A stretch of DNA of 64,000 nucleotides from Actinomycetota bacterium (GCA_012514635.1 JAAYZX010000072.1:4095-68094), one strand, 5' to 3'; shown: positions 6,347-53,780, counted from the first letter of the stretch. Numbers and translations are program-made. The notes: a model not told the origin generated them from the sequence alone.

Positions 6347-6359
6347 ACTGAAACTCTTT

Positions 6360-6398: not shown

Positions 6399-6442
6399 AA
6401 TTCTTGCGGTGAGTGGGCTGCTGTGAGTCGACTCTGCGGTGT

Positions 6443-15794: not shown

Positions 15795-15863
15795 TGTCTA
15801 CCTCGCTTTCGTCATTGTCGCGAGACAAGCGGTGCCACCTTGCAGCTATAGTCTACCATATAT

Positions 15864-35562: not shown

Positions 35563-35598
35563 GCTAGATGCCCCCGGCCTGACGCTGTGGCTCTCTAC

Positions 35599-37035: not shown

Positions 37036-40000
37036 CGGACACTCCCTTCGACAGTCACCGGTTGCGGCTGTGTTGCGCCTTCCCGGGTCCACCAGCGCAG
37101 GAACCCCTTGCTGTCCAGGTAGGCTTCCACGCGCGTCATGGCCCCGGCGTCGTTACTATGTTCGTCGAACTGGAGTACGAGGAAGGGATCACGAGCAGCT
37201 TTGCGCATGAACTGCTTGATGTAGGAGTCCGGTCCGCATTTGAAGTTGTTGATGTAGATGAGATGCAGATTGGGGTGGCGACCCGCCACGCGTGCGGCCT
37301 GCAGGATCTTGCGTCCATAGTTCCAGAACATGTTGGGAGTGATATCCCTGGTCTCCTCGGTCCACAGCGGCAGAAATTCCAAGGGGATTACGTTGGCCCC
37401 ATACAATTTGCGGAGTTTGGCAGGGATATCCATATTAAGCCCGGGGTCGTAAAGATTGTAGGGACGGCCGATGAGCACGATTCCCAACTCGTTGTGCTCC
37501 TGTAGGCGGGCTAGGGCGTCTGCTCCGGCCTGCGACAACGCGGCGCGGAACTCGGCCTGTGCAGCATAGGCATGATCCACCGCACGTTCTACCTCACGAC
37601 GGCGGAGGCCCAGAGGCTTGAAGTAATCCACCAGTGTGCGTCGTACATATTCGGGACCGCGCCGGAAGTGCACAGTTGGATACAGGAAGCGATGTGCATA
37701 GGGTTCAAATGTGGGAGCCGCCATCACTACATATGGTAGTGTCTGGCCCCAGGCACAGGCGTGAGATTCCACCTCAGGTGTGTCTGTCTCCTCGTTCAGC
37801 ATGTTGGGGAGGAAGACGTAGTCTACGCCCTGGTCCAGCAGCCAAGCTACATGGCCGTGAGTCGCTCTGATGGGGAAGCAGGGCTCGGCTACGGCCGACT
37901 CGATGCCGGCTTCCTTGATACGTCTATCCGTCTCGCCGCTTACTAAAATGTTGAAGCCCAGATCCTTGAAGAAGGTGGCCCAGAAGGGGAGCCGGTCATA
38001 GGTGTACATGCTGCGTGGAATACCCACCGTATCGCGGCCGACACCGGCGTCGCTGCGGACGGGGCCGGAGATGTCTATGGAATCATCGGTAGAAACGTAG
38101 GTGAACAGCAGCCGTGCACGCAGGGCGAGGAGGTCGGGAATTACCGGCTTCTTCTCCACTTTGGCGCGTTTGCGGTAGCGGTCGGAGCACTTGTCGCCCC
38201 AGTAGGTCTTCTCGCCGCCGATGGTGAACTGCCGAATATCGCATTCGTTGGTGCAACCCTTGCAGGTGAACTCCTTGACGGTATATTCCACTTGATCCAG
38301 GTCCCAGCCGCGGAAGCGGGTGGACTCTCCGGTAATTTCCATCTTTTCGCGGGCCAGGAGTGCCATACCTACCGCCCCCAGCACTCCGTTGTGCGGAGGC
38401 ACGATAATCTCTTTGCCCAACACCTCGCTGAAGGCGGCAGCTACGGAGTCGTTATAGGCGGTGCCGCCCTGGAAGTAGATGGTATCGCCCACCCTGCGTC
38501 CCGCCACCAAGCGGTTCAAGTAGTTATGTACGATGGAGTAGGCCAGACCCGCCACAAGGTCACGTTTCTCCGCTCCTCGTTGTAGATAGGAGTTGACGTC
38601 GCGCTCCATGAACACGGTGCAGCGCTCGCCCAGGCGAATGGGGGCGGAGGAGGAGAGCGCCAACTCCGCAAACTCACCAATGATGTTGATGCCCATCTTC
38701 TCCGCCTGCTCTTCTAGGAAAGAGCCGGTGCCGGCGGCGCATGCTTGGTTCATGGCGAAATCTACAACGATGCCGTCTTCCAGGCTAATAAACTTGGAGT
38801 CCTGTCCGCCGATCTCGAAAATGGTGTCGGGTCGGCGGCCATTGAGCAGTGTATCGCCGATAAAAGTAGAGCCGGTTTTGTGGGCCGTGATTTCGTCGGT
38901 GATGGTGTCGGCGCCTATCAACTCGCCGATGAGTTCGCGGCCCGACCCGGTGGTTCCTACTCCCCGGATGTTGAGTCGAGGCCCCATCTCCTCCCAGATT
39001 TCTTTGAGACCCCGGTTGACCACTTCTACCGGGCGGCCGTCTGTATTGGTGTAGATCTCCTTAATGAGGTGCCCCTGATTGTCGAGCACCACTAGGTTTG
39101 TAGAAACGGAACCCACATCCACACCGAGATAGGCATCGATTACATCTGCCGGTTGTGACTGCGACGCCGCTGGACCTGCGTTCGGCGCGGAGGCGTCCGA
39201 ATTATCATGGGGCCACGTATAGGGACGGACCACATCTCTTAGCAGAATTACTCGCTCCATGGACAGGGCGGGACTGGTGGGAAATCCGGAGATACGTAGA
39301 TCGCGTAGGAACTCCAAATTCAGCGCCGCCGGGGCGTGATTTGGAGCCTGATCCGCGCTACCGGAGTGTGGCGCGACGGCTTCATCGGTCTCCAGCATGG
39401 CGGCGCCGATAGCGCCCATCCATGCGTAGTAGGCCGGGACGATCATTTGCTCTTCATCCAGCTCAAAAGCTGCACGCATGGCTTCTCTGGCGCCTTCGTT
39501 GGCGGCGACACCTCCGATGAAAGCCACGGTGCCATCGATCTTCTTGCTACGAGCGATCGCGCCACGAAAGTTGCGCACTACAGCGTCGCAGAGACCTTTC
39601 AATACCTCCGGCGGCTGGTAGCCCTTCTGCTGGGCGTGGATCATGTCCGATTTTGCGAAGACAGAGCAACGTCCGGCCACCGTGGCGGCCTTACCGGCGG
39701 AGAGTACGATATCTCCCACATCCTCTATATCGTAGAGGAGACGATTGGCCTGTTGGTCCATGAATGAACCGGTGCCGGCTGCGCAGTCGCCGTTGGTTTG
39801 ATAGTCGGCAACCCCTGCGTGACCGGCTTCGTCCGACGTGTCCAATTCTATGTACTTGGAAGTCTCGCCGCCCATCTCGAAAACGTAGCGGACCTCCGGG
39901 TGAAGCGCTGCCACGGCTCGTGCAATGGCTTTGAACTCGTTCTCAAATGTAACGTTGAGGCGCTCGGCCAATATGCGAGAGCCGGTTCCCGTCATGCGGA

Positions 40001-40283
40001 CACCGGTGATAGTGCCGGCAGGTACGGCTGCCAACAAACCGGTGAGCATGTCGAAAGCCGCTTGAGCCGGACTACCCTTTATGCGGCGATACCGGGTGAC
40101 CAGTAACGGGGGTGAGTCTGGAGCGGGAAGGACTCCATTGGCCGTAGATAGATCTAGAAACAAGCTCTGGTCTGAGCCGTTATGCTCCTGAGCCAGGGCT
40201 TCTAGGAGTGCTGCCTCATCCTGACGACCGACCAACGCCATTTTGACGCTGATGCAGCCGATGTCGATCCCCAGAGTCGCCAT
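37032..40283 (-). CDS. Giant CoA-substrate-specific enzyme activase fusion: two BadF/BadG/BcrA/BcrD-type ATPase domains plus a DUF2229/HgdB-like domain
   Basis: N-terminus LGIDIGCISVKMALVG and a second copy YLGVDVGSVSTNLVVLD, both acetate/sugar-kinase-fold activase motifs. The C-terminal third matches DUF2229 (VGIPRSMYTYDRLPFWATFFKDLGF...). Confidence 0.85.
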   Translation of the reverse strand: MATLGIDIGCISVKMALVGRQDEAALLEALAQEHNGSDQSLFLDLSTANGVLPAPDSPPLLVTRYRRIKGSPAQAAFDMLTGLLAAVPAGTITGVRMTGTGSRILAERLNVTFENEFKAIARAVAALHPEVRYVFEMGGETSKYIELDTSDEAGHAGVADYQTNGDCAAGTGSFMDQQANRLLYDIEDVGDIVLSAGKAATVAGRCSVFAKSDMIHAQQKGYQPPEVLKGLCDAVVRNFRGAIARSKKIDGTVAFIGGVAANEGAREAMRAAFELDEEQMIVPAYYAWMGAIGAAMLETDEAVAPHSGSADQAPNHAPAALNLEFLRDLRISGFPTSPALSMERVILLRDVVRPYTWPHDNSDASAPNAGPAASQSQPADVIDAYLGVDVGSVSTNLVVLDNQGHLIKEIYTNTDGRPVEVVNRGLKEIWEEMGPRLNIRGVGTTGSGRELIGELIGADTITDEITAHKTGSTFIGDTLLNGRRPDTIFEIGGQDSKFISLEDGIVVDFAMNQACAAGTGSFLEEQAEKMGINIIGEFAELALSSSAPIRLGERCTVFMERDVNSYLQRGAEKRDLVAGLAYSIVHNYLNRLVAGRRVGDTIYFQGGTAYNDSVAAAFSEVLGKEIIVPPHNGVLGAVGMALLAREKMEITGESTRFRGWDLDQVEYTVKEFTCKGCTNECDIRQFTIGGEKTYWGDKCSDRYRKRAKVEKKPVIPDLLALRARLLFTYVSTDDSIDISGPVRSDAGVGRDTVGIPRSMYTYDRLPFWATFFKDLGFNILVSGETDRRIKEAGIESAVAEPCFPIRATHGHVAWLLDQGVDYVFLPNMLNEETDTPEVESHACAWGQTLPYVVMAAPTFEPYAHRFLYPTVHFRRGPEYVRRTLVDYFKPLGLRRREVERAVDHAYAAQAEFRAALSQAGADALARLQEHNELGIVLIGRPYNLYDPGLNMDIPAKLRKLYGANVIPLEFLPLWTEETRDITPNMFWNYGRKILQAARVAGRHPNLHLIYINNFKCGPDSYIKQFMRKAARDPFLVLQFDEHSNDAGAMTRVEAYLDSKGFLRWWTREGATQPQPVTVEGSVR

Positions 40284-40405
40284 ATCTCAATGCCTCCCAT
40301 CGCGCGACGGCGCCCGTGCGGGCGATCCAAGATGCTACGGAGCGGAATGGGGCGAGAGCCCACCGCCGCGAGGTGTGTTGTGCGGGCGAAACATCGACGA
40401 GTAGC

Positions 40406-42484
40406 TTACCACGTTGGTCTGGGTGGCGGGTCGTCTCCCACGGGGAGATAGTGGACTCGGTTCCTACCCTCCTTCTTTGCCCGGTAGAGCGCGGTGTCGG
40501 CGGTGCGGACCAGAGAGTACGGAGAAACGTCAGAGGTGGGTTGGGCCGTAGCTACTCCAATACTTACCGTCAGGTAGGGGGCGATCGATGATTGAGAATG
40601 ATCGATGCCCAGGGAGGCGATGTCGCCGCGGAGGTGTTCGGCTACCTCGATTGCCCCATCCGCGGTAGTGTTGGGCAGTATGGTGACAAACTCCTCACCT
40701 CCGTAACGAGCCACTAAATCTGCGGGTCGGCGCATGGATCGAGCGAGCGCGGACGCGACATCGATGAGGCAGCGATCGCCTGCTACATGTCCGTAAGTAT
40801 CGTTGTAGGCTTTGAAGAAGTCGATGTCGACCATGAGCAAAGACAGTGGTCTGTCGTCGCGGATTGCCCGTGCCCACTCTCGCTCAAGGCGTTGGTCGAA
40901 ATGTCGTCTGTTGCTGATACCGGTGAGAACATCAAGCAAAGAAAGATCGCGGAGCTTCTTGTTGGCGATTCGCAGTTCGGACTGGAGTTGGACCAGCTCC
41001 TCTTCGCGTTGACGACGCTGTTCAATCTCTGCGCGGGTGCGTTTTTCGGCCAGCTTGCGATCTGAGATATCGATATAACTGTATAGTAAACAGAGACGCT
41101 CGCCTAACTGCAGTGGAACCACCGTCAGAAGAACCGGTATCACCGAACCGTCGGCGTGGTACGCGTGCCATTCATGGTTTCGGATTCCTGCATCTTCGTT
41201 GGGTGCCGTGTGTGTCTCATCGATATGCTTCAGTATGGAGCTTCGTGTGACTCCAACGGTCTCTTCATGGCCGCGACCCAAGATAGAAAGCCCCACAGGG
41301 TTCACGTCGATCACTCGGTCGGTTTCGGTGTCCGCGAGCAGGATACCCACTCCAATGGTCTCCAAGATACGCTGCAGCTGCTCTCGTTCTTTGTCTAAGC
41401 TTTCACGAGAATTGTCAAGGGCGCTGAGCATGTCATTGATTGCTTCAGCGAGACCTGGGAGTTCGCTTTCACGATCTTTGCCCTGAAGTCTAGATCCCGG
41501 TTTCGCATTTCGTCCCAGTTCCGCGATGTCGGACACCAGCCGATTCAAACGGGCGAACACCAACCACTCTGTCACAAAGAGTCCCATACCGCCAACGATT
41601 AGGCTGATGAAGAGAAGTGCGAAGAGGAAGAACGAGGTCGTTTTGGAGGCTACCCGCATGATCTCACGGGGCTGTTCGACTTTCACCACGCCCATTGGCG
41701 AACCTGAAACATCTTCCAGAAACACGTACGATGAGATGACTGTGGGACTTGAGATCTCGGTCCATACGTCTGTTTCGGGAGTCGGATTGATGGAAGCGGG
41801 CCGGTTGTGCGTTGGCTGGTTACCCCCGGTCGCCGGCTGGTCGTCGGTGGATAGGAGGGATACAGCGATCTTCATTCCGGCGGCACCCTGTATGCGTCTG
41901 GTGAAAGTGTCGTCGAGGTAGCGGCCCATAAGGAGTGTACCGTTGATGGGGCCGGTACCCTGTGTGCCACGGAGGGGGGCCGAAGCCACCAGTATCAGGG
42001 CCTGTGCGCTCTGGGCGAGGCCGCTGCTCACCGATGGCACCGTCTGTGAGGCGCCTAGATGGGCGGAAGCTAATAGGCCTGCAAGCACCTCCGAGGGGGC
42101 ATCTGAGCCGCGATGCGTTATCAGGTTCATGCTTCTGGCCAACAGTATATTGCCTGGAGAGTCTGTGATCACCAGCAGATGGAGGTGCAGGTTACGCATA
42201 GTGTAATCGATCATATCGATATCGAGGGGTGCGTTAGTCCGTCCCGAAGCGAACGCGTACAGCTCATCCGACGCTGCGGAGTTGGCTGCATCTGCGGCTA
42301 GGGCATTGACATCTGTGCTGATGGCGCACTTAACACGCTGCACGTTCTCCTGGGCGTCCTTGCGTTCCAGTTCTAAGAACTGCGAGCGCAACATGGACTC
42401 CGATATCGTGTACAAGGCTCCGGCTAATACCAGCAGGGTCAAACTAAGAATGATAATGGTTTTGGCGCGAAGCGATAGGTGCAC
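40406..42484 (-). CDS. Membrane-anchored diguanylate cyclase: periplasmic sensor domain, HAMP, PAS, GGDEF
   Basis: GGDEF active site RYGGEEF with the upstream I-site-like RRPAD. Two TM segments bracket a ~250 aa periplasmic domain. PAS-like ILETIGVGILLADTE. Confidence 0.85.
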   Translation of the reverse strand: MHLSLRAKTIIILSLTLLVLAGALYTISESMLRSQFLELERKDAQENVQRVKCAISTDVNALAADAANSAASDELYAFASGRTNAPLDIDMIDYTMRNLHLHLLVITDSPGNILLARSMNLITHRGSDAPSEVLAGLLASAHLGASQTVPSVSSGLAQSAQALILVASAPLRGTQGTGPINGTLLMGRYLDDTFTRRIQGAAGMKIAVSLLSTDDQPATGGNQPTHNRPASINPTPETDVWTEISSPTVISSYVFLEDVSGSPMGVVKVEQPREIMRVASKTTSFFLFALLFISLIVGGMGLFVTEWLVFARLNRLVSDIAELGRNAKPGSRLQGKDRESELPGLAEAINDMLSALDNSRESLDKEREQLQRILETIGVGILLADTETDRVIDVNPVGLSILGRGHEETVGVTRSSILKHIDETHTAPNEDAGIRNHEWHAYHADGSVIPVLLTVVPLQLGERLCLLYSYIDISDRKLAEKRTRAEIEQRRQREEELVQLQSELRIANKKLRDLSLLDVLTGISNRRHFDQRLEREWARAIRDDRPLSLLMVDIDFFKAYNDTYGHVAGDRCLIDVASALARSMRRPADLVARYGGEEFVTILPNTTADGAIEVAEHLRGDIASLGIDHSQSSIAPYLTVSIGVATAQPTSDVSPYSLVRTADTALYRAKKEGRNRVHYLPVGDDPPPRPTW

Positions 42485-42621
42485 AGACTCCCTCCTGGCT
42501 GTGTCATCGGAAGAACAGAAGGGTGTCTTTAGTGTAAGAGGGTAGTTGCGTTGATGCGGAGAAGGCTACGAACGCTCTGTGTTACCGGTGAAAGGAGGTG
42601 GAGCCGCCGGTGCATGAGAAG

Positions 42622-42685
42622 GGGCCGCCGGGCCCAGAGGGCCCGGCGGCCCCCGCCACCGCGCGCTTCATGGCGCGCGGTGGCG
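42622..42685. repeat. Two consecutive GC-rich perfect palindromic hairpins downstream of satP
   Basis: gggccgccgggccc-agag-ggcccggcggccc, then ccgccaccgcgcgc-ttcat-ggcgcgcggtggcg. Confidence 0.45.
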
Positions 42686-42705
42686 TCAAGCACTTAACAA
42701 AGTTG

Positions 42706-43305
42706 CTACTTGTTCATGGGCCCCAAGGGGAGAACAACGCGGCCGTAGACCTCGTTCCAGATCTGGGCGACGGCGGCGTAGACGGCCGAAAGACCGCACA
42801 CAATGCCCTCCCACCCAGCTATCTTCCCCACTATTTCGTTTCCGGTCCAATCGCGGATGGCTAGCAGGACAAAAAGCACGGTCAAGGTGAGAAACACCGT
42901 CTGCAGTGCCCGGTTCAACTTGAGTGTGCCGATAAACATGCAGAAAGTGAAGAATCCCCAGGCAAGAAAATACCAGGCCATGGCGTTATCCGATGCACCT
43001 TCCCACCAACCCCACTTGTTGAAAAGGAGTAGGCCTACCAAGGTGAGCCAGAACAGGCCATACGACGTGAAGGCTGTGGTTCCAAAAGTGTTGTTCTTTT
43101 TCCACTCCATGACACCGGCGATAATCTGGGCCAAGCCCCCGTAGAAGATGCCCATGGCCAGAATCATGGTGCCGAGCTCGTAGATGCCGGCATTGTGGAT
43201 GTTCAAGAGGACCGTGGTCATGCCAAATCCCAGCAGTCCCAACGGCGCCGGATTAGCCGTAGTGTCCTTGGTGATGACGATTGATTCCCCCGCTTGCGCC
43301 GCCAA
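42706..43305 (-). CDS. satP: GPR1/FUN34/YaaH (SatP/AceTr) acetate/succinate channel
   Basis: Family signature [14 protein letters not shown] near the N-terminus. Six TM helices. Confidence 0.85.
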
Positions 43306-43885: not shown

Positions 43886-43897
43886 GTTACAAAACTA

Positions 43898-44317
43898 CTA
43901 CGGGTGCGTAGTCTGCACCTCGCCGTCGTCCCGGGCCCCGTTCCCTACCGGCACGTAGACCGTGCTGCCGTCGTCCAGTCGATAGAATTGCCCTATCAGC
44001 TCACCTACACCCGACGTTTCCTCACCGGGCTGGAGTTGCAGGCGCTGAAGCGTGTCGCCTTCACGGATGATGAGCTCCATGTCGTGCCGTCCCGGGTTTT
44101 TGACCACGGTCATATCCTCACCCGCCAGCAGATCGGATAGGCCGATTCCGCTCAAGGCGGCCAATAGGAATGCCACGGCCAGCACGATGGCTACGTCGAA
44201 CAGGTTGACAACCCCATCCAGTGGATCGCCGTTGCGGTCCGTGCGATCCAGCCGTCTTCGTCCCATGAAGCGACCGTTGGTGCGGAGGGTGCGTCGTGTG
44301 CGCTTGATGTCGCTCAT
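43898..44317 (-). CDS. ExbD/TolR-like single-TM protein (DUF2149-like); start overlaps the ExbB-like gene stop (ATGA)
   Basis: Basic N-terminus, then VNLFDVAIVLAVAFLLAAL (compare ExbD INLTPLIDVVFVLLIFF), then a ~80 aa extracytoplasmic domain. Confidence 0.55.
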   Translation of the reverse strand: MSDIKRTRRTLRTNGRFMGRRRLDRTDRNGDPLDGVVNLFDVAIVLAVAFLLAALSGIGLSDLLAGEDMTVVKNPGRHDMELIIREGDTLQRLQLQPGEETSGVGELIGQFYRLDDGSTVYVPVGNGARDDGEVQTTHP

Positions 44318-45057
44318 AACGTGTCCTCGTTGGAGGCGGGGGGAAGATCGCCTCCTTCAGAAGTGCCGGTTTTATGCACTTGGTCGAGGGTTCGCATGGG
44401 GACGTGCGGAACAGGGGCAACACTGCCCTCCAGCAGTTCCAGCATGTACTCCAGATCAGATATGTCTTGCGAATACATGCGCTCTCGCAGGGCGCTGATC
44501 AGGTATGCCAGTCCACCGATGAGCAGCCCAAGGACCGTCACCGAAAACGCCACTCGCAGATTGCTGGCTAGAAGCTGAGTGTTGCCTTCCGCGAGTGCCG
44601 TCAGAGCCGGCGAAAGAGGGATCAAGGTACCCATGAGACCGAGCATGGGACCCACCCGCACTAGGATGCGGGTCTTTTCGAGACGCTGTTGGGTACGAAA
44701 CTCGTATTCCTCCAATAGCTTAAGCGGTTTTTCTGGGATCTGTGCCGTCTGGTAGTTGTGTATCAACTCGAAGAGGAAGTTGATCACCACGAGCGAGTAG
44801 CGGTTCTGGGCCAAGTATGAGTAGGCTTCGTTGGGTCGGTTGTTGGCAAAGGCTCTTTTGGCCCACAGGGCACGGGACTCGAGTCGTTCCAAATTGCGAT
44901 AGCGTTTGCGCAGATACATTTCATACGCCAGCCTGCCCAGCTCTACCAGGACCCACACCAAACAGGCCAGCGCTCCGATGAGGACCGGGTACAGCAACAC
45001 CCGCGCGATCTCATAGATAATCTGCTCAAGTCCCTGTGCGAAACTAACGGCGATCAT
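44314..45057 (-). CDS. MotA/TolQ/ExbB-family proton-channel protein
   Basis: Three-TM topology and family core RVGPMLGLMGTLIPLSPAL...LASNLRVAFSVTVLGLLIGGLAY. Confidence 0.8.
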   Translation of the reverse strand: MIAVSFAQGLEQIIYEIARVLLYPVLIGALACLVWVLVELGRLAYEMYLRKRYRNLERLESRALWAKRAFANNRPNEAYSYLAQNRYSLVVINFLFELIHNYQTAQIPEKPLKLLEEYEFRTQQRLEKTRILVRVGPMLGLMGTLIPLSPALTALAEGNTQLLASNLRVAFSVTVLGLLIGGLAYLISALRERMYSQDISDLEYMLELLEGSVAPVPHVPMRTLDQVHKTGTSEGGDLPPASNEDTL

Positions 45058-45063
45058 GCCGAA

Positions 45064-47070
45064 TCAGTCCTTCAGGTCGTCCGGTAATGGTAGGTGTGTC
45101 AGGTGATGGCGGACCCTACACTGTAGTTGCAGCCAGGCCGTGCGAGGACCGTCTCCAGGGGGCAGGTGCTTTCCGGAGGCGTCTTCAACAGCGAGGGCGG
45201 CGGGGAACATGTCGGCCAGCAGCGAGCTTCGCCGCCGGTGAAGCACGAGAGAGAGTCCGGCTCCCAACGGCGAGAGAGCGGCGATGCCTCCAGCGAGTAG
45301 TCCCGTTTGCCAACCATCGTCTGTCGGGAGTGGTGCGGTAGGTATCTCCTCACCGGTTACGAGGGTATTGGGCTCTGGGTTCTCAGTGGGAAAATCGGCG
45401 TCTGAAGCGGGTCCCATGCGGACACCGGCCACTACGCCGTCGAATCCGGCGACGTCGTGTGATGAAGATGAGTCGCCGGGTGTAGCCGTGCCGCCCATTG
45501 TGGAGTGCGCTCGGCTTGTCTGTGCGTTCGGGGTGTAGGCCGAGTGCGTCTCGGAGGCCTTCTGGCTACCGGATTGTCCGCCTGTGAGTACGCGCGTTGC
45601 GCCCCCCGCCGCACGGGTGGTCTCGGTGGTTCGGGACACGGTGGTTGGGCCGTTAGCGCTGCCGTTACCGGCTGCATGGGTTGTGGTAGTGGTCGGCGCC
45701 GTGGCGGTAATGGGAAGCTCGGAGGTCGCGACATGGCCTGCATAGTCGGCGATGATGATGCCTACCTTGTGCGCTCCCGGCGAAAGTGTGCCTATGGACA
45801 GCTCAAGCGAACCCTCCGTCACCGTAGCTGTATCGAGGGTGAGCGCTGTGCCGTCCAGATACACTTGTATCTGTGCGGGGTTGATGCCGGTCTGGCCCAC
45901 TCCATCGGTGAACTCGGCGCTGATATGAAAACCGTTGGTGGGCACGTCGGCGTCCGGCATCGGCGTCAGTGAGGAAAAAGAAGGACGATAGTCGGGGGCT
46001 TGGTTATGCTCCAACAGAGAAAAAGGAACACTGTGACCGGCAAGCGCTATAACGGCCTGCGTGGTGGTCATGAGGGGTGTGGCCACCTGTCCTGTCCGGT
46101 GTGCGAAGCAACCGCTGGGCTGCTGGAGGGAAAGCAGATATCCGGCGGGGTCGTTCTGTCTGGTCCAGTTGGATAGATCCTCGCCCAAGGCATTGAGGGC
46201 TTGAAGTGCCCAGGCGGTAGATTCGGCCGTGCTCCTGGTGTTCGTTATCCACGACGCAAAGCCGCCGTCCTCGTTCTGGTATCGGCGCAGGAATTCCACC
46301 GCCGCCTGCACGGCTGAGTCGTCTCGGGAAGCGCCGGAGGCCACTAATGCTTGGATGGCTGCTCCGGTGTCATCCACATCTTCTACGGCGCCGCTTTGGA
46401 ACGAAAAGCCCCCGTCGGCCGCCTGAGCCGTCCGCAGCCAGGCGGCGGCCTGCTCCACGATCTCCTGGTGCGATCCCAGGGCGGATAGTGCAAGAATGGC
46501 CCAGATGGTGGTGTTGATATCCGCCATGCGGGAGTTGGCGGTGGACATGGAGAAGTGGCCGGTGTCGGTATGGCGGAAGGCCAGCAGCTCATCTGTCAGG
46601 GATACGGTGGGCCGTCCTGCCTGCATGGCAAGGTCTGGTCGTCCTGCAGCGTTGAAGGCCAGGATCAGCTTGGCATAGAAAGCGGGTGTGTTGTTGCTGC
46701 CTGCTCCGGAGACGGCCTCGGAGGCGATGTCCATGTCGCGCATTACCGTCACCAGGTTTCGAGAGTCGAGGGACCATGAGGCGGGATTGTATCCGGCGGC
46801 AGAGACGGCCATGACGGCCCAGGGGAGGATGCTGAGGTCGCCGGTGGGGGAATTGGTAGCGAAGCCACCGTTCTCTTTCCACTGGGCGTGGAGGTAGTCG
46901 AGGGCTCGGGGGGCGGCATCTTGGGGTGTGAGGGCCAAGGCCGGACTGCTCAACGTGAGCACAAGTATGAGGAAAGATATTGTGGCCGGCGCAGCGGCCG
47001 TCATGGTGCGATTGGCCACAATACGCGCGCGTCCCCTGACTGCAGGAGGGGATGGGGTTGAGATCGTCAT
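45064..47070 (-). CDS. Cell-surface prenyltransferase/squalene-hopene-cyclase-repeat (alpha/alpha toroid) protein: signal peptide, Ig-like domain, Thr/Ser-rich stalk, C-terminal TM anchor and ~55 aa cytoplasmic tail
   Basis: Repeated QW/GGF-type motifs (KENGGFATN, ADGGFSFQSG, NEDGGFASWI, QQPSGCFAH). Stalk TATAPTTTTTHAAGNG...TSRAHSTMGGTATPGDSSSS. TM anchor GLLAGGIAALSPLGAGLSLVLHRRR. ATG at 47070 overlaps the S-component stop (ATGA) and has GGAGG 8 nt upstream. The track start at 47280 is an artefact. Confidence 0.75.
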   Translation of the reverse strand: MTISTPSPPAVRGRARIVANRTMTAAAPATISFLILVLTLSSPALALTPQDAAPRALDYLHAQWKENGGFATNSPTGDLSILPWAVMAVSAAGYNPASWSLDSRNLVTVMRDMDIASEAVSGAGSNNTPAFYAKLILAFNAAGRPDLAMQAGRPTVSLTDELLAFRHTDTGHFSMSTANSRMADINTTIWAILALSALGSHQEIVEQAAAWLRTAQAADGGFSFQSGAVEDVDDTGAAIQALVASGASRDDSAVQAAVEFLRRYQNEDGGFASWITNTRSTAESTAWALQALNALGEDLSNWTRQNDPAGYLLSLQQPSGCFAHRTGQVATPLMTTTQAVIALAGHSVPFSLLEHNQAPDYRPSFSSLTPMPDADVPTNGFHISAEFTDGVGQTGINPAQIQVYLDGTALTLDTATVTEGSLELSIGTLSPGAHKVGIIIADYAGHVATSELPITATAPTTTTTHAAGNGSANGPTTVSRTTETTRAAGGATRVLTGGQSGSQKASETHSAYTPNAQTSRAHSTMGGTATPGDSSSSHDVAGFDGVVAGVRMGPASDADFPTENPEPNTLVTGEEIPTAPLPTDDGWQTGLLAGGIAALSPLGAGLSLVLHRRRSSLLADMFPAALAVEDASGKHLPPGDGPRTAWLQLQCRVRHHLTHLPLPDDLKD

Positions 47071-47813
47071 GTGGTGTCCTCCAGAGGAAGCAGGCGGGGT
47101 GAGGTACGGGCTCTGAAACGTGCCAAAATACGGATGGCCTGAGGCCCGAATGCCAGCGCTCCTAAAACGGTGGCGGCAACGTGAGCGACGTCGAAGGGAG
47201 CGCCCTGTAGGTAGAGCGCAAATAACGCGCCCAGCGAGTGGTTTGTGAAGGCCAGGAACATCCACAAAGAAACGAACCAATCAAACGCGAGGGCTAGGGC
47301 GCCTCCCACCAGCGCCAGTGTCCAACGGGATGGGACGCGGCCATGGCGACCGAGGGCACCGCCGGCAAGTCCCACCAGTCCCCATGCCAGCATTTGCCAA
47401 GGCGTCCAGGGGCCTTGTCCGAAGAAGAGGTTGGAGACCAGGCCGGTAGTGGCCCCCGCCATGAATCCTGCGCGGGGACCGAGAGCCGCCCCCGAGACCA
47501 GAATGATGATGGTGACGGGTTTGAAGTTGGGCAGTGAGGCAAACAGCACGCGGCCCGCGGTGGCCAATGCTGCCATGGCGGCCACCAGCGCGAGTTCATG
47601 GGCGGCGGCCAGCCGGCGACCCAGCGTCCAGGTGAGAGTGGCCCCGGCCAGCAAGACGATCAGGAGGGCGAACGTCCCCCAGGGGAGTGCGCCGGGGCGC
47701 AGGATGGTCAAGATGGCGAGGGTGGCGGCGCCGGTGGCCAGAGTCACCGGCGCCGCCACCCTCGCCATCCATCTGGGGTTGCGCACACGGATGTCCGTCG
47801 TTTCAGGCTGCAC
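47067..47813 (-). CDS. Putative ECF-transporter substrate-specific (S) component (possibly CbrT-like); hydrophobic 6-TM protein
   Basis: Small multi-TM protein sitting between the ECF A-A' and surface-protein genes in the same operon. Assignment is by context and hydropathy, not by motif. Confidence 0.5.
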   Translation of the reverse strand: MQPETTDIRVRNPRWMARVAAPVTLATGAATLAILTILRPGALPWGTFALLIVLLAGATLTWTLGRRLAAAHELALVAAMAALATAGRVLFASLPNFKPVTIIILVSGAALGPRAGFMAGATTGLVSNLFFGQGPWTPWQMLAWGLVGLAGGALGRHGRVPSRWTLALVGGALALAFDWFVSLWMFLAFTNHSLGALFALYLQGAPFDVAHVAATVLGALAFGPQAIRILARFRARTSPRLLPLEDTT

Positions 47814-49527
47814 TCTCAGTCTCGCGATCTCTTATGATCACCTGTTCAGCACGCAACACACCCGGCAGGGCATGGCGTAGCAGGCGGTTGATCTGGGTGG
47901 AAAAGAACAGGGAGCCGTCGAGCACCTGCTCCACGGGTCCGTCGGCCAAAATGCCGCCGTCTCCCAGAAGAATCACCCTGTGGGCACAGCGGGCGGCAAA
48001 CTCTATGTCGTGGGTTACGACCAAGATGCCCATGCCCGTCTCCGCCCAGCGGGCCAGCAGGTCTGCCAGGGCCGATTTGGCGGTAGGGTCGAGGCCGCGC
48101 GTAGGTTCATCTAGGACCAGGAACGGCGGATGCGCACAGGCCAGAAGTGCCAAGGCCGCTCTTGTACGTTCCCCCCCGGAGAGATCGCGAGGGTTGCGGT
48201 CCAGTAGTTCGCTCAGCTCCAAGTCGTGGATGATAGCCTCTCGTAGGTACTGGCGGGCGGGCCCCGGTTGGGTGTGCATCTCCAACGAGTAGTCGAGTTC
48301 CCGAGAGAGGGTCTCGTGCACGAAGTAGTCGGTAGGATTTTGCCCCAATATCGCGCAAGAGCGGGCTGCTTCTGCCACCGACATGGTCGAAACCAGGCGG
48401 CCGTTGATGGCTACGCTCCCGGCCATGGGTTGACGCAGGCCGTTGAAATGGCAGATGAGTGTCGATTTGCCGCAGCCATTTTCCCCAAGGAGGGCCACTA
48501 TCCGGCCGGTGTGCAGCTCGAGGTCGATGTCGTCCAGAAGAGGCGGATCTGGAGGGTAGCCAACAGACAGGCGTCTGACGCTAAGCGTACCCCGGTCGGC
48601 AGAACTATCGTTGGCGCGATGAGATGCATAGTGGGTGCTAGAGGCAGGATTCGAATCTGAGACCGGGTCCGGATTTCGCCATTGAGGTTCAGCAAATCTC
48701 TCTGTACCGTCGTTCATGGCCAGGCGGGCATCGCGAACGGTGAGTGGTAGCCTGTGGCCGGGGGCAAACAATCGTGTCACGGGAGGTAGAAATTCAGGAT
48801 GCATCGTAGATGCCCACGATGCGAATGCTGAAGGGGTGGTGTCTAGGACTAGATCGCCCGAGTCCATGAACAGTACACGGCCGGCCATGTGTAGGCAGCG
48901 ATCGACCCGATGTTCTGCTAGGACAATGGTGGTGCCCGTATCCTCGCTCAGCCGGCGGAGCGCCGACAGCAACTCCTCAGCGCCGACCGGGTCCAGTTGT
49001 GATGTAGGCTCGTCCAACAATAGCAGCTGCGGCTGCGTGGCCAGCACGGCGGCAAGCGCTACCTTCTGTAGCTCGCCGCCGGAGAGCGTGGAGAGCGTGG
49101 CACGTCTGAGGTGAGATAGTCCCAGAGCCACCAGAGACTCCTCCACCAGCCTTCCTATGGATGCTACGGGTGTGCCGGCGTTCTCCAGCCCAAAAGCGAT
49201 CTCTCTCTCCACCGTAGTCATGACGGACTGACTCTCCGGATCCTGGAACACCAGACCCACTACCCGTGCCAGATCGCGAGGTCGAGATGAACGGGTGTCC
49301 ATCTCAGCGACGCGCACCCGGCCGGCGAATGTTCCCCCGTAGAAGTGCGGCACCAGCCCATTGAGGGCACGCAGCACCGTGGATTTGCCGCAGCCCGATT
49401 CGCCTAAGAGCAGCACTACCTCCCCGGCGTCCAGCTGAAAGGACACGTTGCGGACGGTAGGGGATGAGTCCTCGCGGCCTTCCGGATAGCTGTATGTGAG
49501 CTTCTCTACCGAGACTAGCGGCGCCAC
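47803..49527 (-). CDS. ecfAA: Fused tandem ECF-transporter ATPase (EcfA-EcfA', two ABC nucleotide-binding domains)
   Basis: Two full NBDs: GESGCGKST...LSGGELQKVALAAVL...LLLDEPTSQLD and GENGCGKSTL...LSGGERTRAALALLL...LVLDEPTRGLD. Likely GTG start at 49527 overlapping the EcfT stop. The first ~110 aa of track ORF 47803..49863 are an artefact. Confidence 0.85.
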   Translation of the reverse strand: MAPLVSVEKLTYSYPEGREDSSPTVRNVSFQLDAGEVVLLLGESGCGKSTVLRALNGLVPHFYGGTFAGRVRVAEMDTRSSRPRDLARVVGLVFQDPESQSVMTTVEREIAFGLENAGTPVASIGRLVEESLVALGLSHLRRATLSTLSGGELQKVALAAVLATQPQLLLLDEPTSQLDPVGAEELLSALRRLSEDTGTTIVLAEHRVDRCLHMAGRVLFMDSGDLVLDTTPSAFASWASTMHPEFLPPVTRLFAPGHRLPLTVRDARLAMNDGTERFAEPQWRNPDPVSDSNPASSTHYASHRANDSSADRGTLSVRRLSVGYPPDPPLLDDIDLELHTGRIVALLGENGCGKSTLICHFNGLRQPMAGSVAINGRLVSTMSVAEAARSCAILGQNPTDYFVHETLSRELDYSLEMHTQPGPARQYLREAIIHDLELSELLDRNPRDLSGGERTRAALALLACAHPPFLVLDEPTRGLDPTAKSALADLLARWAETGMGILVVTHDIEFAARCAHRVILLGDGGILADGPVEQVLDGSLFFSTQINRLLRHALPGVLRAEQVIIRDRETESAA

Positions 49528-50426
49528 GTCAGACTCCAGACGGCCGGTACAAAAACAAATGCGAGCAACGCGATGCTCGAGGGGGTTGTGAACGTCTCCA
49601 TAGGGTTGGCGATCACGGGGAAATACGCGAAACCCAGGTTGCGACTGACACCTCCCACAATCAAGCAGATGAAGCCTCCTCCTGCGAGAGCCGCTACTGC
49701 TATGTCGGTGGTCTTCCAGCGCAGGCGGCGTCTCCATGTGGTGCGCCCCGGTAGGCCGTAGCCGCGTGATTCCATGGAGGCGGCTACGTCGGTGCCGCGC
49801 TCCAGGCTTTGAGTGAGAAGTCCTGCTAGAAGGGGACCGCGGGCGATGGCTCGGTCTCGCCATCGCCCGCGGTCCAGTTCCGCTCCCCGCGAGCGTTGCG
49901 CATCGCTGATGCGGGCTGCGTCTCGGGAGAGCACGGGGAGCAGTCGTGTGGCCAGCGACACCACTAATGCCGACCTGGCCGATAGTCGACTCAGCATGGC
50001 CAGTTGGTAGTCCTGGTCTAGGATCAATGTCAATGTGGCGAATGCCAGGATCAATGTGATGAGGTGAAGTGCCTGCCCAGCTCCGAAGGCAATGCCCTCC
50101 CAGGTAATCCGTAGATGGAAGGGACCCAGTTGGGCGGCCAGCAAGGGGTGAATTCCCCCTGACGAAAACAGTGGGTTAATGATGAGCACCGTGATGCCTG
50201 CATAGATTGCTACACGTACGTATGCGGCAGCGGCACGCAGGCGGCCGTCGCTCGCCAGAGTCAGCAGGCAGGCACACAATATGCATACGAGGAACAACGG
50301 ATTCGTTATTACCAGCGCCGCTGTCACCAGGAACATCGTGTAAGCGGTTACCACTGCAGGGCGACGCGCAGCCATCCCCGCACGGAATGAGAGGCGGTGG
50401 CTTTGGATATGTCGTTGTCCGCGCAT
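49515..50426 (-). CDS. ecfT: ECF-transporter transmembrane (T) component, EcfT/CbiQ family
   Basis: CbiQ-family coupling-helix motifs (SRDAARISDAQRSRGAE ... AASMESRGYG). ATG overlaps the upstream stop (TGATG). Confidence 0.8.
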   Translation of the reverse strand: MRGQRHIQSHRLSFRAGMAARRPAVVTAYTMFLVTAALVITNPLFLVCILCACLLTLASDGRLRAAAAYVRVAIYAGITVLIINPLFSSGGIHPLLAAQLGPFHLRITWEGIAFGAGQALHLITLILAFATLTLILDQDYQLAMLSRLSARSALVVSLATRLLPVLSRDAARISDAQRSRGAELDRGRWRDRAIARGPLLAGLLTQSLERGTDVAASMESRGYGLPGRTTWRRRLRWKTTDIAVAALAGGGFICLIVGGVSRNLGFAYFPVIANPMETFTTPSSIALLAFVFVPAVWSLTWRR

Positions 50427-51433
50427 CAGTTGTTGCCTTCGGTTGGGGAGGCAGTCGACTTGTCGGGGAGGGGGACGAGTTTGTCTTCTGAGATCCCCAC
50501 GGCTACGCGACCGCGCGTAGATAAGGCGTGCAGTTCGGCCAGCAATGATTCTAGGGCTTCTATATCGGCCCCGAGCAGCACGAGTAGTAGGGCGTCGGGG
50601 TTATCAGGATGCGCCAGGCATAGGGCGGCTGCAGCGAGTAGACGTCCGGCTTCGCCCTCTTCGGTCAAAGCGTTCAGTGTGCCGTCCGGGTTTCTTTGCA
50701 CAAAAACTCCCATTCTATAGCCCCGCTCCAGGATGGCATTCAGCCACTGCGGTATCTCTGTCGAGGACAGGTCTATGGCCACCACAGCCTGACCTTGGGG
50801 CAGTTCTTCCACGAGAATCTCAGAGCCCAGGTTGATACCGGTAGCTGAGGCCCAAGAAGTAAGCTGCGAGGCCACATAGGGAGCCGCCCAGGATAGTAGC
50901 TCGTTGTTGAACGGGCGGGGGAAAGCGGACAGCGTGGCCGGGATCATGGTTGTACCCGACCATGCGTGGTAGTCCCACCAAACGGTCTCATTGCTGCTCA
51001 AAGTGTAATAATCTGCGCCTATATCGGCCAGACGCCCATCTACCCAGTAGAACCAGTCTGCGGCTTGGCCGGGGACGGCGGACCCAAAGGTGGATTGAAG
51101 TCCATCTATGGCGCCTACGAAACCGCCGCCGTAGCCCGTCTCAACTTTGGAGTGCTCTACCAGTAGAGCCATGACACTGGTTTCGGCCTGCAACTCCGAG
51201 GTGACGTCCAGGAGGACTTGGTCGCCGAAGTCGCGGGTGACGAGCAGCCGTGGCCCGGGAGCGTCTCCCGGGCCACGGCTGGACTCGGTGGTGGCGGCGG
51301 GCTGCGAAGTCCCGCAGCCCGCCGCCACCACCAACAGCACGACGCACATCAACAATATGCGCGCCACCAACACGCGGCGAGTCGGCGCCAACGGGCGGGG
51401 TACCCTCCGGGATGTGTCGTCGTGTGTGTGCAC
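50426..51433 (-). CDS. DUF4430 (transcobalamin-like B12-binding fold) lipoprotein
   Basis: Lipobox LLVVAAGCGTS. DUF4430 core ADWFYWVDGRLADIGADYYTLSSNETVWWDY (W-x-Y-x-V-[DN]-G ... Y-x-L ... V-W-W-x-Y). Confidence 0.65.
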   Translation of the reverse strand: MHTHDDTSRRVPRPLAPTRRVLVARILLMCVVLLVVAAGCGTSQPAATTESSRGPGDAPGPRLLVTRDFGDQVLLDVTSELQAETSVMALLVEHSKVETGYGGGFVGAIDGLQSTFGSAVPGQAADWFYWVDGRLADIGADYYTLSSNETVWWDYHAWSGTTMIPATLSAFPRPFNNELLSWAAPYVASQLTSWASATGINLGSEILVEELPQGQAVVAIDLSSTEIPQWLNAILERGYRMGVFVQRNPDGTLNALTEEGEAGRLLAAAALCLAHPDNPDALLLVLLGADIEALESLLAELHALSTRGRVAVGISEDKLVPLPDKSTASPTEGNN

Positions 51434-51440
51434 TTTCCCT

Positions 51441-52802
51441 CTACTTCAGCAGCTCAAGCAGGTTGGCGATGACCTGGGCGGTCTCCGCCCGCGTCATGGG
51501 CTCCCACGGATCGGCCGCCGTGCCTTGGAGATCGAGACCGGTGAGCAGGCCGTTGTATTCCGCGATGCGGGCGTTGTCCTGGTGATCTGTCGAGAAGGTT
51601 CCCCAAGTTGCCGAGAAGGTTTCGGGTGCCTCGCTGAGCGCCGCCGGCGTGATCATCTGTGCCGCTCTGACCACCATGGTCACCACCTGCGCGCGGGTCA
51701 CTTTGTCATAGGTGCCGAAAGTATTGGTCGTGAGGCCTTTGACGATCCCACGCGAGAAGGCCGCCGCCACAAAATCGTGAGGATAGGGGTTTCCGGTCTC
51801 GCGTTCGCCCAGATCGGTGAAGGGCGTGTCGGCCCCAGCTACGATCTCCAGCGAGAGCGCCAAAGAGATCATCTTGGCGAACTGGGCGCGGAAGAGGTTA
51901 TCGGCGGGCCCGAAACTCGGAGTGACGTCTCCCGCATCGGTCTTATAACCTTCCACGATGCCGGCACCGGCAATGGCGTGGATGGCGCCATAGTGGGGAT
52001 GATCCGCGCTCACGTCTGCGAACTCACCGATGAGGGTCAGGCCGCCTGGGCCCGAAATGTACTGCCAGTTCTCATCGTAGGCCTTCTCGGCCCACACGGC
52101 GTGGATGCCGACCGGGACTACAGCTATGGTCACCTGTCCCTGCGCGTCGGTTACATATGTAGCGCCGTTCACATGGACGGTTGCTCCCTCCACCGGCTCG
52201 AAGTCGGCCGGCAGTTCTACGTCCGTGGCTGGGTCGAGATCGAAACGCGGAGCGTCGGCAGCGGAGTTGGCTTTGCCGAGGTCGTCACCTACCACCGTCA
52301 ACGTGACCGGTCCACCGGCCGCGACCGCCTGCGGCCCCAGCACGATGAGTTCCTTGTCCACCCAAGGGGCCGTGGGATCCCCGCCGGCCTCGAAGAAGAG
52401 GATGCGGTCACCGTCCTGCAGCTCCCAGTCGAGCAGGCCCACCATGGGGATGCATCCGTTGACGGAGTACAGCCACCAGCTGGTCCAGTCCGGAGGGCCA
52501 CCTATTCCGGCGATGGAATCGAGGAAGGCTCCACCTGCAGTAGTGACGAAGGCAAAGTCCTCGGCTTGGGCCGCCAGATATAGTGCGCCTAGGGCATTGG
52601 CCGGACCGCAGGTGATGACGTTGCCCTCGCTATCGGTGATGGTCAGATCGTCAGGGACGTCTACCTGTACCGGCGCGCAGACCTCGCCGCTCAAGCTCTG
52701 CGCCCGCACCGTTACGGTTGCCGCCCACGCGGGCGCCGCCACCAGCAGTACGAGGGCGGTTGCCAGCACCGTGACCATGGTGAGGAGTGTTCTTTTCCTC
52801 AT
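51441..52802 (-). CDS. SLH-anchored surface protein with N-terminal DUF4430 (transcobalamin-like) domain and three C-terminal S-layer-homology repeats
   Basis: Signal peptide MRKRTLLTMVTVLATALVLLVAAPAWA. DUF4430 core TSWWLYSVNGCIPMVGLLDWELQDGDRILFFEA. SLH repeats (FADVSADHPHYGAIHAIAG..., FTDLGE...HDFVAAAFSRGIVKG, ...TRAETAQVIANLL). Real ATG at 52802. The first 52 codons of track ORF 51441..52958 are actually the riboswitch. Confidence 0.75.
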   Translation of the reverse strand: MRKRTLLTMVTVLATALVLLVAAPAWAATVTVRAQSLSGEVCAPVQVDVPDDLTITDSEGNVITCGPANALGALYLAAQAEDFAFVTTAGGAFLDSIAGIGGPPDWTSWWLYSVNGCIPMVGLLDWELQDGDRILFFEAGGDPTAPWVDKELIVLGPQAVAAGGPVTLTVVGDDLGKANSAADAPRFDLDPATDVELPADFEPVEGATVHVNGATYVTDAQGQVTIAVVPVGIHAVWAEKAYDENWQYISGPGGLTLIGEFADVSADHPHYGAIHAIAGAGIVEGYKTDAGDVTPSFGPADNLFRAQFAKMISLALSLEIVAGADTPFTDLGERETGNPYPHDFVAAAFSRGIVKGLTTNTFGTYDKVTRAQVVTMVVRAAQMITPAALSEAPETFSATWGTFSTDHQDNARIAEYNGLLTGLDLQGTAADPWEPMTRAETAQVIANLLELLK

Positions 52803-52861
52803 CGTCGACCTACCTTTCTCGGTCTCTCCGGCGCGAGCGCTATGGTGCAAAGTGCTCCGAC

Positions 52862-52893
52862 AAATAAAAAACCCCGCTGCTGTGTCAGCGGGG
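52862..52893 (-). terminator. Riboswitch expression-platform terminator (attenuator) between the cobalamin aptamer and the first operon gene
   Basis: On the minus strand: ccccgctg-acacag-cagcgggg followed by TTTTTTATTT, ~60 nt upstream of the ATG at 52802. Confidence 0.6.
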
Positions 52894-52954
52894 TGCACTT
52901 CACCTGATCGGTTGCTGAGCACCCATCCGCGTGGGTTAAGCAGCTCTGCAAGCG

Positions 52955-53125: not shown

Positions 53126-53264
53126 CACATAGCCGCGCGCCTCTATTGATACACACCTCCATGGTAGAGGGCGGTCGCGGACAATGCAAGCACTCAAAGG
53201 GGTGACGGTGTTAGACGAATCCGACGGTTGCAGAGACCGACACTCCGGAGTATGGTGCAATGGT

Positions 53265-53780
53265 ATGGAAGGATACGTACAGGTATATACGGGCGACGGT
53301 AAAGGCAAGACCACCGCCGCCCTGGGGCTGGCGCTTCGAGCGGCGGGTGCCGGGCTGCGTGTACTTTTTGCCCAGTTCGTGAAGGGTATGGAGTACAGCG
53401 AAATGAAGGCTCTGCAGCGCTTTGCCGATCTCATCACCGTTCGTCAATATGGCCGGGGGTGCTTCATCTACGGTGAGCCTGCGGCGGAGGACTGTGCCGT
53501 TGCCCGTTCCGGTCTGGATGATGTGCGTGCCGCTTTGGTCTCCGGCGATTTCGATTTGGTCATAATGGACGAGGGCAACATAGCCACCAGCGTCGGTCTA
53601 TTCAGCGTGCGTGAGCTCCTTGATGTGATGGCGGCCAGACCTGCGGACGTAGAGTTGGTCATCACAGGTCGGGATGCCGACCCTCGTGTAATTGCAGCAG
53701 CCGATCTGGTGACCGAGATGCGTGAGATCAAGCACTATTATCAACAGGGCGTCCAAGCGCGTATCGGAATTGAGAAATAG
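53265..53780 (+). CDS. cobA: Cob(I)yrinic acid a,c-diamide / cob(I)alamin adenosyltransferase (CobA/BtuR/CobO family)
   Basis: P-loop VYTGDGKGKTTAALGLALRAAGAG and family core LFAQFVKG...DLVIMDE. Divergent from the riboswitch-controlled operon. Confidence 0.8.
   Translation: MEGYVQVYTGDGKGKTTAALGLALRAAGAGLRVLFAQFVKGMEYSEMKALQRFADLITVRQYGRGCFIYGEPAAEDCAVARSGLDDVRAALVSGDFDLVIMDEGNIATSVGLFSVRELLDVMAARPADVELVITGRDADPRVIAAADLVTEMREIKHYYQQGVQARIGIEK

Follow-up and report, generated by a model that had tools for sequence, protein, structure and literature searches.

Importers of the energy-coupling factor (ECF) class are the textbook 'binding-protein-independent' importers, and a locus from an Actinomycetota bacterium raises the question of what two secreted proteins of one domain family, each with an anchor of its own, are doing directly ahead of such an importer. 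The locus lies in a stretch of 64,000 nucleotides (GCA_012514635.1 JAAYZX010000072.1:4095-68094; herein the window, in whose numbering all coordinates are given), where positions 50426-52802 hold exactly two neighbouring minus-strand genes for DUF4430 proteins, gene 1 encoding the 'outer' protein and gene 2 the 'inner' lipoprotein. A first-pass annotation of this DNA had described them as tandem transcobalamin-like proteins, one bound to the S-layer and one a lipoprotein, and had suggested that they relay vitamin B12 from the outer wall layer to the membrane. We assign the operon that they head to the uptake of a corrinoid (vitamin B12 or cobinamide) under the control of a cobalamin riboswitch, because of that riboswitch, the homology of its S component to CbrT and the adjoining gene for the adenosyltransferase CobO. 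With moderate confidence we further propose a riboswitch-repressed uptake operon that has a dedicated ECF transporter and works by wall-to-membrane hand-over through three extracytoplasmic accessory proteins, which are predicted to sit at three envelope depths.

Two DUF4430 proteins in a riboswitch-led operon

Both proteins score above the gathering cut-off of Pfam DUF4430 (PF14478, 23.8 bits), gene 1 with 36.2 bits (E=8.1e-9) and gene 2 with 45.5 bits (E=1.1e-11), so the earlier identification is upheld and its accession, PF15892, is wrong. Of the family motif quoted with it, both proteins have W-x-Y-x-V-[DN]-G and G-[DE]-x-[IV], and the trailing W-x-Y is found in gene 2 only. The two domains of the window are 21% identical.

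Gene 1 (51441..52802, minus strand; 453 amino acids, aa) opens with a signal peptide (residues 1-27, 52802..52722) that is evident from the sequence: the N-terminus, MRKRTLLTMVTVLATALVLLVAAPAWA followed by ATV, is a classic Sec signal for signal peptidase I (SPase-I), with the cleavage motif AWA/A. DUF4430 comes next (approximately residues 28-140, 52721..52383, with the Pfam match at residues 77-136), then a middle domain that is probably Ig-like (residues 141-258, 52382..52029) and three S-layer homology (SLH) repeats (residues 259-453, 52028..51444). The middle domain has no family assignment of its own; relatives that lack SLH carry a FlgD_ig-type domain (PF13860) in precomputed Pfam annotation. 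The description of a 453-residue protein ending in three SLH repeats is borne out by a match to Pfam SLH (PF00395) at E=8.6e-13 and by a search of the Protein Data Bank (PDB), in which the whole three-SLH domain of Bacillus anthracis Sap aligns to residues 260-447 and SbsB aligns as well; the sequence has one motif per repeat (FRAQ, TRAQ and TRAE). The N-terminal half drew eight homologues from a word-index search, and no second SLH protein is encoded within the 64-kb window. SLH had also been taken to mark the envelope type of the organism, which SLH alone does not fix; such repeats are known from monoderms and diderms alike.

Gene 2 (50426..51433, minus strand) is 335 aa long counted from its GTG start. 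The start is ambiguous between this GTG at 51433 and a TTG at 51391, each with a Shine-Dalgarno-like sequence, and a lipoprotein-type signal peptide results from either. The lipobox claimed for this protein stands: VVAAG-C (LLVVAAG-C) fits the pattern [LVI..][ASTVI][GAS]C, and an alignment of 25 homologues shows a conservation of at least 90% for its cysteine (Cys40, codon 51316..51314). The DUF4430 domain spans residues 61-160 (51253..50954) and is followed by an alpha/beta C-terminal domain (residues 161-325, 50953..50459). An AlphaFold2 model of gene 2 from 25 sequences (mean predicted local distance difference test, pLDDT, 87.9) is laid out as a signal helix and a disordered, flexible linker (residues 45-56) that leads into a beta-rich and then an alpha/beta domain. 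By Foldseek, the beta-rich domain matches 3u7z, a bacterial DUF4430 crystal structure (TMt 0.75), and the isolated transcobalamin beta domain 5no0 superposes on the model (TMt 0.67, root-mean-square deviation, rmsd, 2.6 A), with haptocorrin (4kki) and intrinsic factor (2pmv) as further matches; DUF4430 is the C-terminal domain of TCN proteins. The link between the gene 2 domain and transcobalamin is drawn from the fold search only, since PDB sequence searches with gene 2, alone or as a 25-sequence profile, gave no meaningful DUF4430-domain match. The C-terminal alpha/beta domain (50459-50953), conserved in all inner-class proteins, may serve in docking. A resemblance to the flavodoxin-like BcsB region was considered and set aside as too weak to interpret (Pfam E=0.0085; Foldseek E=1e-4, rmsd approximately 20 A).

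Gene 1 is preceded by a cobalamin riboswitch aptamer (RF00174; 52942..53147, minus strand), which cmscan recovers over the full model (1-189) with 75.4 bits and E=9e-17, the gathering score being 31.5. Between aptamer and gene 1 lies a terminator-like hairpin with a T-run (52861..52894, minus strand; hairpin 52894..52871), in which a 9-bp stem with 7 GC pairs, ACCCCGCTGACACAGCAGCGGGGT, is followed by TTTTTATTTG; the Shine-Dalgarno sequence and ATG of gene 1 come after it. This hairpin is the probable expression platform, acting by transcription attenuation. From the aptamer onward, eight genes run along the minus strand with every junction overlapping or separated by at most 7 nt, and we read them as a single transcription unit.

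The ECF importer that had been placed downstream is found there, with genes for EcfT/CbiQ, a fused EcfA ATPase and an S component coming directly after gene 2. The start of the T component (EcfT, CbiQ type; 49515..50426; Pfam CbiQ, 1.1e-18) overlaps the gene 2 stop (TGATG). The fused EcfA-EcfA' double ATPase (47803..49527) has two ABC_tran domains (4.5e-56), matches NCBIfam ECF_ATPase_1 and ECF_ATPase_2 at approximately 1e-98 and has a probable GTG start, from a start-codon scan, at 49527, overlapping the end of EcfT. The S component (47067..47813, its start lying between 47813 and 47768) matches Pfam ECF-ribofla_trS, DUF6580 and ECF_trnsprt, and its sole PDB match is chain A of 6FNP, the 182-aa membrane protein of ECF-CbrT (E=2.9e-10). 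Outside the operon and divergent from it, a gene for the ATP:corrinoid adenosyltransferase CobO/BtuR (53184..53780, plus strand; Pfam CobA_CobO_BtuR, 1.6e-60) keeps the same position in several related loci (L001-L004, L010 and L084 of the survey below). The B12 link made at first pass is thus strengthened by three features, the 75-bit riboswitch, the CbrT-matching S component and the divergent CobO gene.

The same operon encodes an alpha/alpha-toroid protein and a pair of membrane proteins that the first-pass annotation did not include. The toroid protein (45064..47070, minus strand; 668 aa, its ATG overlapping the EcfS stop) consists of a signal peptide, the toroid, a beta-rich domain, a long Thr/Ser/Pro-rich linker, a C-terminal transmembrane (TM) helix and a cytosolic tail of approximately 58 aa. 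It matches Pfam Prenyltrans (4.9e-14) and also SQHop_cyclase_C, and the best Foldseek matches of its modelled ectodomain (AlphaFold2, 38 sequences, pLDDT 90.6) are squalene-hopene cyclases and prenyltransferase beta subunits. A specific identification with the alpha domain of transcobalamin was rejected, as profile searches against the PDB and Foldseek both put these enzymes first. The extracytoplasmic toroid has a D-V-D-D-T-[AG] motif (approximately 46370-46385, minus strand; near residue 185 of the modelled fragment), each Asp of which is kept in 27-30 of 38 relatives and which matches in form DxDDTA, the catalytic motif of squalene-hopene cyclases.

Distribution and descent of the two classes

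The gene 2 family numbers 561 representatives (50%-identity clusters) at E<=1e-10, and its nearest members are in metagenome-assembled genomes (MAGs) of Thermoleophilia and Gaiellales. Open reading frames (ORFs) were called in 83 related loci and annotated with hidden Markov models (HMMs) iterated from the window proteins, and co-occurrence was counted in the 70 loci with at least 3 kb of upstream flank. An additional DUF4430 gene stands in the cluster beside the lipoprotein gene in 61 of these 70 loci (87%), leaving 9 in which the outer gene has no counterpart; ECF genes are present in 57. The two-DUF4430 arrangement is common and not peculiar to the source genome. The additional gene carries SLH in 33 loci (6/9 Thermoleophilia-like, 24/31 Bacillota and 3/4 from other groups), and the orthologues in L001-L004 and L010 have the same architecture as gene 1.

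The two classes differ in their targeting. Inner-class genes examined across the loci have a lipobox, and outer-class genes have Ala-X-Ala signals of SPase-I type; the outer class has few matches to the lipobox pattern, and these fall either near the beginning of the signal peptide or within N-terminal ORF extensions that are doubtful. In a neighbour-joining tree of 173 DUF4430 domains (83 against 90), the outer and inner classes split perfectly: the nearest neighbour belongs to the same class for 173 of 173 domains, and mean identity between classes is 22%. The outer class is itself diverse, with a mean identity of 25%, one or two copies per locus, and forms with or without SLH or a fused toroid. 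The two classes are thus ancient paralogues, and the perfect split, taken with their co-occurrence in 61 of 70 loci, argues that their roles are not redundant. Regulation is widespread as well, with a cobalamin riboswitch heading the cluster in all seven representative loci scanned with Rfam, drawn from six lineages (Thermoleophilia, Gaiellales, Solirubrobacteraceae, Anaerovirgula, Desulforudis and Paenibacillaceae), and in 68 of the 83 loci when an nhmmer profile built from the Rfam hits was used.

Gene fusions join the same parts in other combinations. The S component is fused to the toroid in 17 of 23 Solirubrobacterales loci (for example L021, L022, L027, L028, L031, L032, L050, L052 and L059) and also in P0220, from its precomputed Pfam annotation. 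Because of these fusions, read as Rosetta-stone evidence, the toroid probably acts at the S component or transporter. The additional DUF4430 gene is fused to a toroid in 19 loci as toroid-DUF4430(-SLH), the arrangement of a full-length transcobalamin-like chain, and 17 of the 31 Bacillota loci have the toroid-DUF4430-SLH form.

In many Bacillota, such a toroid-DUF4430-SLH chain is the first riboswitch-controlled gene (L017, L018, L023, L029, L033, L036, L037 and L040, as well as L041, L046, L070, L079, L080 and others) and encodes a wall-tethered, complete transcobalamin-like protein, often joined by a second, separate toroid that sometimes has SLH itself. Some Bacillota loci have two cobalamin riboswitches (L018, at 15622-15813 and 6255-6446, L033 and L068); in L018 one precedes the main cluster and the other an additional toroid-DUF4430-SLH gene. 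Outer proteins without SLH (L005-L009, L011-L014, L021-L032 and others) combine an SPase-I signal with an Ig-like domain at the C-terminus (FlgD_ig, precomputed Pfam), and by analogy with hemophores they might be corrinoid binders that the cell releases. The window is syntenic, flanks included, with a Thermoleophilia-type MAG (GCA_040769905.1, locus L084), the shared flanking genes (window 33022-43305, L084 13573-21506) encoding a major facilitator superfamily protein, a Gpr1/YaaH-like protein, a BcrAD_BadFG activator-like protein (1083 aa), DUF2229 and MMPL; several operon genes look split in that assembly, probably by frameshifts.

A proposed route for the ligand and its rivals

As far as comparative sequence analysis can carry it, we hold the parts list, the predicted topology, the B12-responsive regulation, the CbrT homology and the conserved co-occurrence of two targeting classes to be established. 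The route itself is proposed as follows. Gene 1 would leave the cell by the Sec route, and its SLH triplet would fix it in the wall, its lone transcobalamin-beta-like DUF4430 domain facing outward and capturing corrinoid. The ligand would go on to gene 2, the DUF4430 lipoprotein, which a flexible tether of approximately 20 residues would hold at the outer face of the membrane, and gene 2 and the membrane-anchored toroid would probably close on it in the manner of a transcobalamin split into its alpha and beta chains, a reading that the toroid-DUF4430 fusions support. Acting at the S component, the toroid would hand the corrinoid to the CbrT homologue for import by ATP hydrolysis, after which CobO would adenosylate it, and when B12 is replete the riboswitch would end transcription at the leader hairpin. 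Elsewhere in the window, a radical SAM enzyme with a B12-binding domain (19412-21181, plus strand; Pfam B12-binding 2.5e-14, Radical_SAM 1.1e-10) is a likely consumer of the imported cofactor. We infer all of the binding and transfer steps, namely corrinoid binding by both DUF4430 proteins, action of the toroid at the S component and delivery from the SLH-bound outer protein to the inner pair. In intrinsic factor and transcobalamin, a beta fragment on its own binds cobalamin, on which the alpha part then closes; by analogy, an outer binder with a beta domain only and an inner complex with both alpha and beta parts would form a natural affinity gradient.

Several points weigh against this account. 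Corrinoid binding and transfer by either DUF4430 class are predictions. The survey frequencies are conditional and approximate, the loci having been retrieved by similarity to gene 2 and read with our own ORF calls and ad hoc HMMs. Many relatives in the outer class that lack SLH have no recognisable anchor, so wall tethering is not essential to the system. Transcobalamin is not among the top 50 Foldseek matches of the toroid model, which are terpene cyclases and prenyltransferases; the window toroid has no Pfam Cobalamin_bind (PF01122) match at E<=0.1; and to call it alpha-domain-like is only a statement of fold class, together with the 4 of its 38 relatives that do match Cobalamin_bind (best 2.6e-8). 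Furthermore, the only genetically studied relative, the operon lsa1836-1840 of Lactobacillus sakei, has been tied to heme and not to B12. The relay suggested at first pass is compatible with the different tethers, the two ancient classes and their co-occurrence in 61 of 70 loci; co-occurrence, however, does not demonstrate ligand transfer.

The strongest competitor, which we consider unlikely and nevertheless the most credible of the alternatives, dispenses with the relay: the two DUF4430 proteins would work in parallel, gene 1 as a surface reservoir, as a means of competitive sequestration or as a binder of different corrinoid specificity. Gene 1 would keep B12 at the wall, and gene 2 and the toroid would serve the transporter by themselves. 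The diversity of the outer class, with its low mean identity, variable copy number and variable possession of SLH and toroid, fits a diversification of specificity, and the outer gene is absent from 9 of 70 loci. The accessory surface B12 binders BtuH and BtuJ1 of Bacteroides are described as non-essential reservoirs. Against parallel function, the outer gene is the first behind the riboswitch and tightly packed with the inner gene, and 87% of loci have both classes. The roles of reservoir and relay donor, in addition, do not exclude each other and could coexist.

A more elaborate version of the hand-over, which we regard as improbable, brings in the last two genes of the operon. These encode a proton-channel protein of the MotA/TolQ/ExbB family (44314..45057, minus strand; Pfam MotA_ExbB 8.3e-10; three predicted TM helices) and a DUF2149 protein (43898..44317, minus strand; Pfam DUF2149 2.1e-23), whose start overlaps the MotA stop (ATGA); a terminator-like hairpin (43897..43912, minus strand) closes the operon, and the next gene is on the opposite strand. 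The DUF2149 protein has one N-terminal TM helix with the segment VVNLFDVAIVLAVAFLL, which contains an Asp that we take to be placed as in the TM helix of ExbD/TolR, a likeness based only on the TM motif VVNLFDVAIVL. In Pfam the MotA-partner gene matches DUF2149 and not ExbD, neither protein gave a useful PDB sequence match, and domain scans of the operon proteins found no TonB or TonB-dependent transporter domain. The toroid C-terminus (45064-45300, minus strand) comprises the TM helix GLLAGGIAALSPLGAGLSLVL-HRRR and, after it, a cytosolic tail in which a W-x-[QR]-[LF]-x-x-R-[LV] motif is conserved. This motif also occurs in L001, L004, L005, L011, L012 and L014, loci that have MotA/ExbB and DUF2149, and L003 lacks both the pair and the motif, a small sample; in the 70-locus survey the pair is confined to the Thermoleophilia-like group, where 7 of 9 loci have it.

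In the route proposed above, the pair may couple proton-motive force to one of the steps. In the elaborate version, B12 capture in a Gram-positive-type envelope would be three-tiered and assisted by proton-motive force: an SLH-bound, beta-only binder would supply a split transcobalamin, made up of the lipoprotein beta domain and the TM-anchored alpha toroid and docked on ECF-CbrT, and MotA/ExbB and DUF2149 would form an ExbB/ExbD-like motor, which would pull on the toroid TM helix and its conserved cytosolic tail and so pry the ligand from a very tight alpha/beta sandwich. If true, this would place a TonB-like principle, without TonB and without an outer-membrane receptor, ahead of an ECF transporter. 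It would follow, too, that a transporter class defined as lacking extracytoplasmic binding proteins is able to use them.

A further alternative, that the substrate is heme or another tetrapyrrole, as proposed for L. sakei lsa1836-1840, we hold to be very unlikely. It draws on the finding that deletion and over-expression of that operon altered cellular heme content (bioRxiv 10.1101/864751) and on the MotA/ExbB-DUF2149 pair, otherwise known from the heme operon hmuYRSTUV; it is opposed by the cobalamin riboswitch on the window operon and nearly all of its relatives, by the homology of the S component to CbrT, where hemin was not a competitor, and by CobO next door. Finally, that the genes are a recent tandem duplicate of redundant function with incidental anchors, as adjacent same-strand genes sharing a Pfam domain could suggest, is the least credible reading, for recent duplication is ruled out by the neighbour-joining split of 173 domains, and the window's DUF4430 domains, 21% identical, fall into separate clades conserved across phyla, each class with its own extra domains and signal-peptide type.

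Comparison with known B12 and heme uptake systems

To our knowledge, what has been learnt of B12 uptake in bacteria of Gram-positive type goes no further than ECF-CbrT and BtuFCD. The window operon and its several dozen relatives suggest that many such bacteria, including Thermoleophilia, Solirubrobacterales and many Bacillota, may put transcobalamin-like binders, whether wall-tethered, lipid-anchored or membrane-anchored, before an ECF importer, and as a class they challenge the view of these importers as working without extracytoplasmic binding proteins. We found no paper on a second, wall-tethered DUF4430 protein, on the three-tether arrangement or on the association of MotA/ExbB-DUF2149 with an ECF importer. 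Should binding and hand-over prove true, the system would stand as the Gram-positive equivalent of two relays, BtuG/BtuH of Bacteroides and Isd for heme, would trace the animal B12 carriers to a bacterial origin and supply a split-domain model of them, would provide a handle on B12 competition in anaerobic digesters, soils and guts, and would give the MotA/ExbB-DUF2149 pair a second tetrapyrrole-uptake context besides hmuYRSTUV.

The animal carriers themselves (transcobalamin, intrinsic factor and haptocorrin) resemble the window proteins in both of their domains: their C-terminal beta domain is DUF4430, on which the gene 2 model superposes, and its partner is an alpha/alpha barrel, some relatives of the toroid matching Pfam Cobalamin_bind. 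In the mammalian proteins, however, alpha and beta parts form one soluble chain, whereas the window has them in separate genes with three different tethers and an extra beta-only protein, and its toroid is closer in sequence to squalene-hopene cyclases.

Among importers, ECF-CbrT of Lactobacillus delbrueckii (6FNP), which transports cobalamin and cobinamide and for which hemin is no competitor (PMC5997447), has the same T, A and A' components and a CbrT-type S component, to which that of the window matches at E=2.9e-10, so that a corrinoid substrate is expected. It is a group II transporter with a shared ECF module and no extracytoplasmic partners and works alone in proteoliposomes, whereas the window operon has a dedicated module, fused ATPases, three added surface proteins and the MotA/ExbB-DUF2149 pair.

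An ECF operon with separate secreted proteins resembling the beta and alpha parts of transcobalamin has been described once, from prediction and a deletion phenotype, in L. sakei (lsa1836-1840, encoding ECF S, AA' and T components with the predicted transcobalamin-like Lsa1839, beta-like, and Lsa1840, alpha-like), where the secreted proteins were proposed to capture the ligand and deliver it to the S component (bioRxiv 10.1101/864751). Likened from that description and by domain content, all five components are present in the window, which shares the dedicated ECF module, the fused AA' and the separate beta (DUF4430) and alpha (toroid) proteins. The L. sakei operon differs in that one beta-like protein is described, with no SLH-anchored second binder and no MotA/ExbB-DUF2149, in that its claimed substrate is heme and in that no riboswitch is reported (bioRxiv 10.1101/864751).

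The MotA/TolQ/ExbB and DUF2149 pair corresponds to HmuU/HmuV, which end the heme operon hmuYRSTUV of P. gingivalis and other Bacteroidota (PMC11681262, PMC10434189). The likeness lies in the same gene pair at the end of a tetrapyrrole-uptake operon; there, however, the organism is a diderm and the companions of the pair are a TonB-dependent receptor, a hemophore and a CobN-like protein, and in the window they are an ECF importer and SLH and lipoprotein binders.

Surface capture of B12 by BtuB-BtuG with BtuH/BtuJ in Bacteroides has been called a 'multiprotein extracellular relay' (PMC6143338, PMC10404256, PMC13616437), and these reports describe riboswitch-regulated loci with several surface-tethered B12 binders before a membrane transporter, as in the window. 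That system is built from unrelated components, namely BtuG, BtuH and a TonB-dependent transporter of the outer membrane, and the organisms are diderm; Pfam scans gave no likeness of the window proteins to Btu proteins, a direct comparison not having been made. In layout, Isd of Staphylococcus aureus is the best topological analogue in the Gram-positive wall. There, a tetrapyrrole moves along binders fixed in the wall at several depths to the lipoprotein IsdE, which feeds an ATP-binding cassette (ABC) permease; the domains are of NEAT type, anchoring is by sortase, and the importer is a type II ABC system that has a classical substrate-binding protein. The window operon shares no parts with Isd and has DUF4430 domains, SLH anchoring and an ECF importer instead.

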